Shown: positions 8,527 to 20,011 of the stretch, piece after piece
Layout of the letters: each line of letters opens with the position of its first letter
How positions within the stretch are numbered: the stretch's first letter is position 1
Virus record (IMG/VR): IMGVR_UViG_2537562194_000035
Length of the DNA: 41,291 nucleotides
Source: a virus
Taxonomy: Duplodnaviria > Heunggongvirae > Uroviricota > Caudoviricetes
Direction: 5' to 3' (one strand)
Position numbers and translations under genes: made by a program
Notes under the pieces: model-generated
Seen by the model: only the letters and a program-made list of their open reading frames with translations
Database searches by the model: none
Told to the model about the DNA's origin: nothing

Positions 8527-8853
8527 ATGACTAAAAATACTCGTTTTTCCCCCGAAGTCCGTCAGCGGGCGATTCGTATGGTTCTGGAAAGTCAGGATGA
8601 ATATGACTCACAGTGGGCGGCAATTTGTTCCATTGCCCCAAAGATTGGCTGTACGCCGGAGACTCTGCGTGTCTGGGTTCGCCAGCATGAGCGGGATACC
8701 GGGGGCGGTGATGGTGGGCTCACCAGCGCTGAACGTCAGCGTCTGAAAGAGCTGGAACGTGAAAATCGTGAACTGCGCCGCAGTAACGATATCCTTCGCC
8801 AGGCTTCCGCTTATTTTGCGAAGGCGGAGTTCGACCGCCTCTGGAAAAAATGA
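8527..8853 (+). CDS. IS629-like transposase OrfA (HTH, leucine-zipper region)
   Basis: 108 aa, [22 protein letters not shown]..., recognised from memory as IS629/IS1203 OrfA. Confidence 0.9.
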
Positions 8854-9740
8854 TGCCACTGCTGGATAAGCTGCGTGAGCAGTACGGGGTCGGACCGGTA
8901 TGCAGCGAACTGCATATTGCCCCGTCAACGTATTACCATTGTCAGCAACAGCGACATCATCCGGATAAACGCAGTGCCCGTGCGCAGCACGACGACTGGC
9001 TGAAGAGAGAGATACAGCGCGTATACGATGAAAATCATCAGGTGTACGGTGTGCGTAAAGTCTGGCGTCAGTTGTTACGGGAAGGAATCAGGGTGGCCAG
9101 ATGTACAGTGGCACGTCTCATGGCGGTTATGGGACTTGCCGGTGTTCTCCGGGGTAAAAAGGTCCGTACGACCATCAGCCGGAAAGCCGTTGCCGCAGGC
9201 GACCGCGTAAACCGTCAGTTCGTGGCAGAACGACCTGACCAGCTGTGGGTGGCTGATTTTACTTACGTCAGCACATGGCAGGGCTTCGTCTATGTGGCGT
9301 TTATCATTGATGTGTTTGCCGGATACATCGTGGGGTGGCGGGTCTCATCGTCTATGGAAACGACATTCGTGCTGGATGCGCTGGAGCAGGCGTTGTGGGC
9401 CCGTCGTCCGTCTGGCACCATCCATCACAGCGATAAAGGCTCTCAGTATGTGTCACTGGCCTATACGGAGCGACTAAAAGAAGCCGGATTACTGGCATCA
9501 ACAGGGAGTACAGGCGACTCGTATGACAACGCGATGGCTGAGAGCATCAATGGTCTTTACAAAGCGGAGGTAATACACCGTAAGAGCTGGAAAAACCGTG
9601 CAGAAGTGGAACTGGCCACACTAACGTGGGTGGACTGGTATAACAATCGACGATTGCTGGGAAGGCTGGGCCATACTCCTCCGGCAGAAGCAGAAAAAGC
9701 TTATTATGCTTCCATCGGAAACGATGATCTGGCAGCCTGA
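8850..9740 (+). CDS. IS629-like transposase OrfB (DDE catalytic domain)
   Basis: 296 aa; overlaps orfA at an A6 run (8845-8850), a likely programmed -1 frameshift site for an OrfAB fusion. Confidence 0.9.
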
Positions 9741-10751: not shown

Positions 10752-11037
10752 TTCGCAGTTGTTCTGGTATTTATATATCACATCCTTTTTCGGTGCATTC
10801 GTCATTACACGATGGCTGTGCCGGAAAGTTATCAGTATTTTTCATAAAAAATACCTGATTGGGCAGGCTGCGACTTCTCTGATTAATGCACTGGCCAGAT
10901 ATCATAAGGGGGAATGCTACTCAAGAATAAAAACTGATGATGGTTTTAATATTTTTGTGATTCCTCCGGAGTATCGGGTTCAGCTCGATCGGGAAAATAA
11001 TACCTATCATATCCGCAGGAGTGTTGATACAGCATGA
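10741..11037 (+). CDS. Hypothetical protein with N-terminal transmembrane helix
   Basis: 98 aa, AGGAG SD; hydrophobic stretch LFWYLYITSFFGAFVITRWL. Confidence 0.5.
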   Translation: MDSSSQLFWYLYITSFFGAFVITRWLCRKVISIFHKKYLIGQAATSLINALARYHKGECYSRIKTDDGFNIFVIPPEYRVQLDRENNTYHIRRSVDTA

Positions 11038-11543
11038 GAGGGAAACTGATATCTGCCATTCATGTGGCAAAACGCGAGCTTGCCCTGGATGATGAAACCT
11101 ACACATCCGTACTACTGGCGGTCACCGGCAAAACCAGCTGCCGGGATATGTCACCGGATGAGTTATCCCGCGTGCTGGATGTTTTCAAAAAACGCGGTTT
11201 TAAAGTGCGTCAGAACCCGGTTAACCGGGCCTTAAAACCGGGTACGGTGACCGCTAAAATTCGCGCCATCTGGAAGGTGATGCACCGGCAGGGCTTTATC
11301 TCTGATGGTGCGGAAACCGCCCTTAACCGCTGGGTGAAATCGCAGACGGCCGCGCAAAACGGCGGCGAAGGTGTGGCAAACTGGCAGTGGCTGGAGCAAC
11401 ACCCCGCCCTGGCCTCAGATGTGCTGGAGCGTCTCAAGCGATGGCACCGCCGCAAAATGCTGGCCGCGATGGGAATGCCCGAACGCACGCTGATGGGGTA
11501 TGACGCCGTTTGCAGGCAGTATGAAAAATCACTTCCCCGTTAA
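11034..11543 (+). CDS. GemA-like protein (Mu gp16 family)
   Basis: 169-aa ORF; position just before Mor/C and general resemblance to the Mu GemA family; assignment from memory, not verified. Confidence 0.55.
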   Translation: MRGKLISAIHVAKRELALDDETYTSVLLAVTGKTSCRDMSPDELSRVLDVFKKRGFKVRQNPVNRALKPGTVTAKIRAIWKVMHRQGFISDGAETALNRWVKSQTAAQNGGEGVANWQWLEQHPALASDVLERLKRWHRRKMLAAMGMPERTLMGYDAVCRQYEKSLPR

Positions 11544-11547
11544 CCCC

Positions 11548-11580
11548 AAATCCCGCCACAACGCGGGATTTTTATTTTAA
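11548..11580 (+). terminator. Rho-independent terminator at end of early operon
   Basis: Stem ATCCCGC / GCGGGAT (11550-11556 and 11563-11569), 6-nt loop, followed by TTTTATTTT. Confidence 0.7.
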
Positions 11581-11612
11581 ACTTACCGGGAACGCGAGAA
11601 CCGGAGGCTGAT

Positions 11613-12038
11613 ATGGCAGAAACTCAGATGAGCATGTTTGGTGGTGACAGTGAGCAACTGCACGCCCTTATCGACCGCCTTGATGACATCCCTGATGATG
11701 TTCTCAAAAAGAACTGGCCGCGGACCCTGTCAGAACTGGTTGAAGTCACCGGCGCAGAACTTCAGCGTCAGGGGATTGAGCCGGTACTGGCCGGCAAACT
11801 GGCACGCAAGGTGGCTGCGGCTCAGGCAGCCTATATGGGCGGACGGGGTTATTACCTGCCGGTCGGGGAATCTCTCTTTGCCGAGCTGCGAAACAATGAG
11901 ATATTTTCGCGCTGGGACCGGGGCGAGAAAATTGAATCCCTTCGCCGCCATTACCGGATGTCAGAAACCCAGATTTATACCGTCATACGTGAACAGCGCC
12001 GTCTGCATCTGGCAAGAACACAACCGCCACTTTTCTGA
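11613..12038 (+). CDS. Mor/C-family transcriptional activator (middle or late gene activator)
   Basis: 141 aa, GGAGG SD; C-terminal HTH region ...GRGYYLPVGESLFAELRNNEIFSRW...ESLRRHYRMSETQIYTVIREQRR typical of the Mu Mor/C family. Confidence 0.75.
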   Translation: MAETQMSMFGGDSEQLHALIDRLDDIPDDVLKKNWPRTLSELVEVTGAELQRQGIEPVLAGKLARKVAAAQAAYMGGRGYYLPVGESLFAELRNNEIFSRWDRGEKIESLRRHYRMSETQIYTVIREQRRLHLARTQPPLF

Positions 12039-12109
12039 TATTCCGCAAAGCCTGCCGCCTTTCCTTCACCGTTACGCTGACTCAGAGAACATCATGAGAC
12101 AGCGTAACA

Positions 12110-12610
12110 ATGCCAAAACTCCCCGCACCACTGCGTAAAAAGCTGATTGCCCTTGTTCTGGCCGGTGCCGGGACGTTCACGATTGCCACGCATTACACCG
12201 GTTACTGGGAAGGGAAAGAAAACTCCACGTATATCGATCCCACCGGTACACCCACCATCTGTTACGGCCATACCGGCCCGGATGTGAAACCGGGTATGAC
12301 CCTGACGGATGAAGAATGCCTGGAACTACTGGAAAAGGACATGAAATGGGCCTTTGCGGCCATTGATCGGCGTGTTCAGGTGCCGCTTACCCGTGGTCAG
12401 ACGGTGGCGCTGGCTTCGTGGATCTTCTGGGCCGGTGAAACGAACTTTCGCAACTCCACGCTTCTGCGCCTGATCAATGCCGGGCAGATGCCCGCGTCCT
12501 GTAAGCAGTATATCCGCTGGATTTATTCAAAGGGGGTGAAGCTCCCCGGCCTTGAGGCCCGCCGTTCGGCGGATGAATGGTTATGTCGCTACGATTTGCC
12601 GAAAGTCTGA
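12110..12610 (+). CDS. Endolysin, phage lysozyme (GH24-like) with N-terminal signal-anchor-release domain
   Basis: 166 aa; hydrophobic N-terminus LIALVLAGAGTFTIA, then catalytic-type motif E-x8-D-x5-T (YWEGKENSTYIDPTGTPTICYGHT). Confidence 0.8.
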   Translation: MPKLPAPLRKKLIALVLAGAGTFTIATHYTGYWEGKENSTYIDPTGTPTICYGHTGPDVKPGMTLTDEECLELLEKDMKWAFAAIDRRVQVPLTRGQTVALASWIFWAGETNFRNSTLLRLINAGQMPASCKQYIRWIYSKGVKLPGLEARRSADEWLCRYDLPKV

Positions 12611-12683
12611 ACCGCTTCTGGCGACCGATCATGATAGCGCTGCTGTGTGCGGTACTGCTGTTACGGGGTGTCCTGTGGCTGCG

Positions 12684-13073
12684 GTGAATAATGCCTTACC
12701 GGCCCTGATTGCCGGGGCGTGCATGGCGGCGCTGGGGATTATCGCTGTACTGGTTGCCGCGATATGGGGAATGCACCAGAAGACGCAGCGCCTTGAAGAC
12801 AATAATCAGGTGCTTGTGCGTGAGCGGGATGAGGCGCGTCAGGTGCTGGCAAATCAGCAGCACACCCTGCAACTCATTTCACAAATCAGTGAGGCGGCCA
12901 CGAATGAAAAACAACAGAACATTCAGCACAGCGAGGGGCAGCAGAGCGTTGTCCGCCGGTCGCTGGCAGCAGTGCCTGCGGCCTCTGCCCCTGTTCCTGA
13001 TGATGTGGCTGATCGGGTGCGCCGGGCCGTCTGTGAAATACGTGCCTGTGAAGCCGGTGCCGATCCCCGCTGA
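12684..13073 (+). CDS. Putative i-spanin (Rz-like): N-terminal TM helix plus periplasmic coiled coil
   Basis: TM segment ALPALIAGACMAALGIIAVLVAAIWG followed by a Q/E/R-rich helical region. Start uncertain (GTG 12684, ATG 12723 or ATG 12573); stop firm. Confidence 0.5.
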   Translation: MNNALPALIAGACMAALGIIAVLVAAIWGMHQKTQRLEDNNQVLVRERDEARQVLANQQHTLQLISQISEAATNEKQQNIQHSEGQQSVVRRSLAAVPAASAPVPDDVADRVRRAVCEIRACEAGADPR

Positions 13074-13284: not shown

Positions 13285-13512
13285 ATGGATGATTCAGATC
13301 GTGCTCAGGCTGTGATGGAGCGGGGATCAGAACGCGCCCTTTGTAACCGGCTGACACGTAAGCGCCAGGCAGTGGATACGCCGGGCAGACGTGTCTGCGC
13401 GGACTGTGGTGGAGAGATCCCCGCCGCACGTCTTGTTGCTGTGCCTGATGCCATCCGTTGTGTGAACTGCCAGAACATCATGGAGGCCCGTAATGTGGGT
13501 CAGCATCGTTAA
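13285..13512 (+). CDS. TraR/DksA-family C4 zinc-finger protein
   Basis: 75 aa; CADCGGEIP...CVNCQ four-cysteine motif. Confidence 0.7.
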   Translation: MDDSDRAQAVMERGSERALCNRLTRKRQAVDTPGRRVCADCGGEIPAARLVAVPDAIRCVNCQNIMEARNVGQHR

Positions 13513-19835: not shown

Positions 19836-20011
19836 TTGTTTAAGGTATGCAAATGCATTACCTTACCCCCTTCAGGCGCGTGTCGTGATTTTCTAACCTG
19901 TATTTAACGGGCTTTAAAATCTGCGTGAAGCGCCTTTGTATTTTTCCCCTGGAAGCACTTCCTGAAATCCCGCAAAACCCGCCCTGAAAATTCCCGGCTT
20001 ATGCTGCCGGA

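Follow-up and report, generated by a model that had tools for sequence, protein, structure and literature searches.

Next to the start codon of lys, the endolysin gene of a Mu-like prophage of E. coli, lies an inverted repeat that probably acts as a transcript-specific translational mask, of the style known from T4 gene e, which would prevent premature synthesis of the endolysin. We hold this model with a confidence somewhat above even. Transcripts of the upstream activator gene (11613-12038), after which no terminator-like site is found, would run on into lys. On such read-through RNA, nucleotides 12071-84, which make up the -10 and discriminator of the lys promoter, would pair with nucleotides 12095-108, just before the lys AUG. 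The resulting hairpin, of about -20 kcal/mol, would bury a weak ribosome-binding region, with the consequence that little endolysin would be made. Once the activator has accumulated, it would bind its box at 12035-56 and RNA polymerase would start at about 12085, inside the hairpin; the late mRNA would then be devoid of the whole 5' arm and would begin with an unstructured 25-nt leader, open to translation. The hairpin, the absence of a terminator, the anatomy of the promoter and the recurrence of the arrangement in relatives all come directly out of computation.

The stretch of DNA analysed here (the window, 41,291 nucleotides) is a Mu-like E. coli prophage. Its segment 11600-12700 is 99% identical to segments labelled 'inserted Mu-like phage' within two Stx phage records, and the prophage was found in 231 of 5,426 complete E. 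coli genomes, O157:H7 strains among them. Around the repeat, the order of elements is gemA (11034-11543), an intrinsic terminator, a gene of the Mor/C family of activators, a gap of 71 bp, lys, and spanin-like genes (Table 1). Elsewhere, inside the early region of the prophage, an IS3-family insertion sequence occupies 8527-9740, with an orfA-like ORF and a transposase (rve, HTH_21). The activator shares 39% identity with Mu C and 27% with Mu Mor, and no second gene of the family was found among the window ORFs tested with Pfam. While Mu has both Mor and C, the window phage has a single Mor/C-family gene among the ORFs scanned, which suggests a transcription cascade in two stages rather than three.

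In Mu, the Pm promoter overlaps the early terminator. By analogy, the segment 11548-11612 could hold an activator-dependent, autoregulated promoter overlapping the terminator that precedes the activator gene. The left arm of this terminator, AAATCCCGC, has the same core as the box of the late promoter. Sixteen nucleotides on from the terminator arm comes TATTTT (11573-78), and further on the ATG at 11613 is preceded by a good SD, GGAGG. Were the activator gene indeed to have an activator-dependent promoter, late RNA might follow soon after read-through RNA.

Table 1. Positions in the window of the elements discussed in the text (-10, box, start and second promoter are predictions)
Feature	Position	Strand	Remarks
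Intrinsic terminator	11548..11571	+	9-bp stem then TTATTTT; between gemA and the Mor/C-family gene
Mor/C-family activator gene, 141 aa	11613..12038	+	Pfam Mor, E = 2.8e-32
Putative activator (C) box, CTGATATTCCGCAAAGCCTGCC	12035..12056	+	about -50 to -29 from the predicted start
Promoter spacer	12057..12070	+	hypervariable among close relatives
Hairpin 5' arm	12071..12084	+	covers the -10 and discriminator, -14 to -1 from the predicted start
Predicted -10 hexamer, TACGCT	12073..12078	+	inside the hairpin 5' arm; resembles Mu Plys
Predicted late start, G12085 (or A12084)	12085	+	in the loop, 7 nt past the -10; 25-nt leader
Hairpin loop	12085..12094	+	from repeat arms and RNA fold
Hairpin 3' arm	12095..12108	+	holds GAGA (12096-99), the sole SD-like element; ends 1 nt before the AUG
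lys, phage lysozyme	12110..12610	+	Pfam Phage_lysozyme, E = 6e-37
TraR/DksA zinc-finger ORF	13285-13512		downstream of lys; by Pfam not Com-like
Second late promoter	19962..20005	+	upstream of an I-like protease/scaffold gene (ATG 20012); internal control for box and -10

The inverted repeat and its predicted fold

The first-pass annotation had reported a perfect 9-bp inverted repeat abutting the lys ATG, and GTTACGCTG (12071-12079) and its exact reverse complement CAGCGTAAC (12100-12108) are found there letter for letter. The repeat is in fact longer than first noted: 13 of 14 positions are matched between arms that extend over 12071-12084 and 12095-12108, leaving a loop of 10 nt. It had further been proposed that, as RNA, this sequence would form a hairpin over the lys initiation region, and folding was named as one way to check it. 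The computed fold agrees with the proposal. The hairpin is stable, at -20.2 kcal/mol (z = -6.05, with 0 of 200 shuffles folding as well), its z-score lies at about -6 to -6.9 across computations, and it is retained when folded in a context of 211 nt. In the predicted structure the weak SD-like GAGA is buried and the stem ends one nucleotide before the AUG, so that sequestration of the SD and/or AUG by a stable hairpin, as in systems of the T4 gene e type, is predicted for lys. A comparison of the region 11400-12800 with Rfam gave no match at E <= 1.

The ATG at 12110 is the first start after an in-frame TGA (12095-97), and the RefSeq annotation of an identical copy of the gene uses the same codon. 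The earlier remark that no SD is visible was essentially right, the best pairing between the leader and the 16S anti-SD being a 3-bp GAG, at -2.7 kcal/mol. With Mu gp22, which carries the annotation of a SAR endolysin, the lys product shares 39% identity, and its N-terminus displays a hydrophobic stretch resembling that of the Mu SAR endolysin. Endolysins of the SAR type are dangerous if made early. An ORF of 14 codons overlapping the lys start (12094-12138, plus strand) does exist, as had been noted. It was considered as a functional upstream ORF and rejected: ATGs occur in the loop in only three of eight lineages, with differing frames and lengths, and the ORF is therefore probably incidental.

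A perfect 9-bp inverted repeat is, by itself, ordinary: with loops of 3-40 nt, 23 are found in the window, as against 7.2 +/- 3.7 in dinucleotide shuffles. Arms of 14 nt with at most one mismatch occur once in the window, at lys, and since 23% of shuffled windows have at least one such repeat, window-wide statistics alone are not decisive. The raw folding energy at the lys repeat is only in the top 2% of 50-nt windows, but this sliding-window measure is uninformative, stronger folding being usual in GC-rich coding regions. When the 45 nt preceding each of the 48 plus-strand gene starts of the window are compared, lys stands at z = -6.9, the next best value is -3.25 and the median 0. Taken together, position and comparison across lineages make the repeat more than chance. 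We regard it as quite improbable that the arms are a functionless complementarity between two independently constrained elements, the -10 and the ribosome-binding region. The frequency of such repeats in shuffled windows and the unexceptional raw energy would agree with this, and so would the invariance of the arms in all close relatives, as a result of which no covariation is seen within the lineage. It is nevertheless difficult to reconcile with lys being the strongest outlier among the gene starts, and with the same register being kept, by different sequences, in six other lineages.

Anatomy of the predicted late lys promoter

The late promoters of Mu have a -10 and no -35, C protects a site at about -55 to -30, and the activator site is centred at -43.5 (PMC2582627). 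The features of a promoter of this type are present upstream of lys: TACGCT, a box at -50 to -29, the position of which fits the footprint of Mu C (about -55 to -30), and no TTGACA-like hexamer; the promoter scan gave no sigma-70 match at this promoter. The window sequence TTACGCTgacTCAGAGAA (12072-89) resembles the Mu Plys sequence TTAGACTgccaTCAGAGAA, whose start is known. The Plys oligonucleotide used in Mu has 20 nt downstream of the start, and from the design of this oligonucleotide the Mu +1 was placed at A1957/G1958 of L001, with the -10, TAGACT, at 1945-50 (PMC4461284). The start predicted in the window corresponds to these two nucleotides. Homology and spacing together thus predict where lys transcription begins; the actual start, the read-through from the activator gene and the effect on translation are what we infer.

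Counted by hand, a core AAWCCC starts 26 nt before TAnnCT in Mu and in L069, L070, L076, L093 and L153, the core being AATCCC, but AAACCC in L153. The TAnnCT hexamer is common to the aligned relatives, and the predicted leader measures 23-27 nt in all eight lineages. Two details count against the placement of the promoter in the window, namely a core-to-TAnnCT spacing of 25, versus 26 elsewhere, and an extra upstream repeat in the box.

Because the -10 lies in the left arm and the predicted start in the loop, the late lys mRNA would be devoid of the 5' arm, and the hairpin could form only on transcripts that come from upstream. The late promoter is predicted, in other words, to be placed as in the T4 gene e type, where late RNA is without the 5' strand of the hairpin. 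Of the 15 predicted pairs, 13 depend on nucleotides upstream of +1. For the late leader, beginning at 12085, the folding energy is 0.0 kcal/mol, with z = +0.2 for the 86-nt 5' end of the late RNA; the mean unpaired probability from -13 to +3 is 0.27 on read-through RNA as against 0.51 on late RNA. The terminator scan found no terminator-like site between the stop codon of the activator gene (12038) and lys, though Rho-dependent termination may still occur there; a ribosome terminating at 12036-38 should be too far from 12071 to melt the stem.

In the com-mom system of Mu, the late transcript itself contains a hairpin, which the zinc-finger protein Com opens. The first-pass annotation had likened the lys repeat to this system, and the likeness is that a hairpin hides the start codon in a Mu late function. 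The analogy breaks down on the position of the promoter: the late transcript of the window is predicted to start inside the hairpin, so that the hairpin would not be contained in it, and a late lys mRNA without the 5' arm would need no trans-acting factor to unmask it. It is very unlikely that the late lys mRNA carries the hairpin, either to be opened by a Com-like factor or as a 5' stabilising stem. A stable structure directly adjoining the AUG, together with a very weak SD, would suit such a role; yet the 5' arm holds the sole -10-like element at the right spacing from the box, and it is the loop that matches the start of Mu Plys. If transcription began upstream of 12071, moreover, the box would sit at about -15 to -36, against a centre of -43.5 in Mu (PMC2582627), and the -10 that such a start requires would fall in the hypervariable segment 12057-70.

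An alternative suggestion had been that the repeat is a dyad bound by the Mor/C-family activator. This was given up, the putative activator box being a separate block, at 12035-12056, which is common to the promoter at 19962-19983. As an activator-binding dyad the repeat was also rejected on its geometry: it spans 38 bp and is centred near +5, where a 16-bp imperfect dyad near -43.5 would be expected. We rate as most unlikely the broader proposal of a DNA-level dyad operator overlapping the core promoter, whether for a repressor or for the Mor/C activator. Perfect Watson-Crick 9-mer arms straddling the -10 and +1 to +24 are what an operator might look like, and the window stem has zero G-U pairs; roles at the level of RNA and of DNA are therefore indistinguishable from the window lineage alone. 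Against an operator stands, besides the location of the activator box and its presence at a second promoter that is without the repeat, the behaviour of the other lineages, which differ in arm sequence, arm length and loop (4-17 nt) and keep only the register to the -10 and ATG. Such varying arms and loops are unfit for a conserved protein-DNA geometry, and G-U pairs in three of these lineages (below) favour the sense RNA over the antisense.

The second promoter allows box and -10 to be compared within one genome. Its box, CTGAAATCCCGCAAAACCCGCC (19962-19983), is near-identical to that of lys, CTGATATTCCGCAAAGCCTGCC, and the spacing from box to TTAYGCT is 37 bp at both (TTATGCT at the second promoter, TTACGCT at lys). 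A strict pattern of proximal box plus -10 matches just these two sites in the window, where 0.4 would be expected. No repeat of the hairpin type accompanies the second promoter. Its -10, TATGCT (20000-05), puts the predicted start on the A of ATG 20012, and the gene has no SD; a leaderless late mRNA is possible for this I-like gene, but such an mRNA would be unusual, and the -10 assignment could be slightly off. When translations are read side by side, the N-terminus of the I-like gene product resembles that of Mu I. A third, weaker candidate late promoter precedes ORF 36041-38080: at 35966-36009, CTGAATTAACGCAAAA is followed by TATGAT with almost the same spacing.

Variation among close relatives follows the same partition. 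In 14 haplotypes, the box region (12030-56) is almost invariant, 10 of the 14 positions of the spacer (12057-70) are variable, and the segment 12071-12109 has only two variable sites, the A-A mismatch at A12080 and U12092, in the 10-nt loop, where folding adds a weak inner A-U pair. An activator site followed by a spacer and then by a core promoter with its leader would be expected to give this succession of invariant, variable and invariant segments. In a sister clade (L017-L031), the activator is 83-88% identical and Lys 96-100% identical, a disparity which points to a recombination (mosaic) junction in or near the activator gene.

Hairpins in divergent Mu-like lineages

Loci were collected from genomes, viral contigs and metagenomes through alignment of the activator (relatives at 46-84% identity) and retained where the activator gene is followed by that of an endolysin. 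Hairpins in the same register, though of differing sequence, are present in six further divergent Mu-like lineages, and three endolysin types are found with them. In L069, the L070 group, L093, L076 and L153, whose activators are 45-60% identical to that of the window, the 5' arms begin at -20 to -10 and end at -5 to +6 of the predicted start, the 3' arms cover about -22 to +3 of the ATG, and 9-15 of the 10-16 pairs need nucleotides upstream of +1. The z-scores of these five are, in that order, -3.3, -1.8, -2.7, -4.2 and -5.8. The 3' arm changes with the -10, as in the combinations TACGCT/AGCGTA, TTATC/GATAA, TTCTG/CAGAA and TCCTT/AAGGA. Owing to G-U pairs, the sense-strand RNA of L069, L070 and L153 is more stable than its antisense counterpart, an asymmetry that favours a role at the RNA level. 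The endolysin of L153 appears to be GH108-like, as judged from its N-terminal sequence only.

Pasteurella phage Pmp9, whose endolysin is an amidase, has by inspection the same design, with a 13-bp perfect stem (z = -4.1). Its 5' arm contains TAAACT and its 3' arm AGAGAG, followed by UUUUUU-AUG (L159 1366-1401). Aligned with MAFFT, the eight lineages agree on the -10 and the ATG but have their hairpins in different columns, and for this reason no formal covariation statistic is given; z-scores for each lineage and tables of register were used in place of RNAalifold and of covariation by pair counts. At most loci with activators 42-48% identical (Aeromonas-type), the gene is followed by a canonical terminator and has no Lys homologue beside it; these loci are uninformative for the hairpin.

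The same lineages bear on the main rival to a translational mask, in which the hairpin would serve the ending or processing of the activator transcript, as a weak terminator, a pause site or a 3' stabiliser. In L153 (GAGGGTTTTTTTGATG) and Pmp9 (GAGAGTTTTTTATG) the hairpin is followed by a U-run, resembles an intrinsic terminator, abuts the endolysin start and shares sequence with the late promoter; in these two lineages it probably ends transcription from upstream as well. In Mu and in many distant relatives, a canonical terminator follows the activator gene. Considered with the terminator-like hairpins of L153 and Pmp9, this makes insulation of lys from upstream transcription seem a common theme. 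We nonetheless find a 3'-end role unlikely for the window, where CAATGCCAAAAC comes after the stem, a T-run is missing and the terminator scan is blank; L069, L076 and L093 are likewise without a T-run. Furthermore, the 3' arm consistently lies over the SD/AUG region, and there would be no need for this in a pure terminator. As an intrinsic terminator proper, the window hairpin was rejected on the CAATGCC that succeeds the stem in place of a T-run and on the silence of the scan at that place.

Known systems and meaning for Mu-like phages

In phage T4, long early transcripts of gene e fold and sequester the SD/AUG; the late promoter lies in the DNA for the 5' strand of the hairpin, late transcripts are without that strand and are translated, and the same logic operates at soc, gene 49 and I-TevI (PMC3014915). 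Masking of the T4 gene e type, with which we group mobE of Aeh1, is the closest of the known systems to the mask proposed here. At gene e as in the window, the protected gene is that of the endolysin and the danger is premature lysis. The phages belong to unrelated groups, however, the window being a transposable Mu-like prophage of the siphovirus type. The T4 late promoter is of the gp55 type (TATAAATA), whereas that of the window would be a sigma-70 promoter with a TAnnCT -10 and a putative dependence on the Mor/C-family activator; and the mechanism of gene e has been described, while that of the window is wholly predicted.

The other close system is Plys of Mu itself. At Plys, Mu has the same order, C then lys, a similar -10 and start, a box at about -50 to -30 and a leader of about 24-25 nt. 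The comparison with Mu Plys advised in the first-pass annotation shows a likeness in the -10/start region. The likeness does not extend to the hairpin: Mu has in the equivalent register just a weak complementarity of 7 bp, between GCCATCA (-6 to +1) and the TGATGGC that spans the lys ATGs (L001 1951-1985; z = -1.3), as against the 13/14-bp stem of the window. Mu relies on an intrinsic terminator between C and Plys, where the window has none. At Mu PI (L158 1228-1250), a perfect 7-bp repeat pairs CTGCTCA with TGAGCAG just before the SD of the I gene. The 7-bp repeats of Plys and PI may be weak versions of the same design.

It is conceivable, although we would put it a little short of even, that a hairpin joining the -10/discriminator to the ribosome-binding region is a conserved and previously unrecognised module of the lysis cassette across Mu-like phages, convergent with T4 gene e. 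So understood, the module may be present in at least seven lineages, with three endolysin families, sometimes doubling as a terminator and being vestigial, at 7 bp, in Mu Plys and PI. A limited search of the literature found no description of such masking in Mu-like phages.

If the masking proposed for lys is real, it would explain how premature lysis is avoided in a Mu-like prophage that has no terminator between the activator gene and lys, and it would represent a second, independent evolutionary solution with a logic identical to that of T4 gene e. The sequences of the promoter -10 and of the ribosome-binding site would then be forced to co-vary and to evolve together. For annotation and for engineering, the consequence would be that lys expression depends on the site where the transcript starts, and not just on transcription of the gene.
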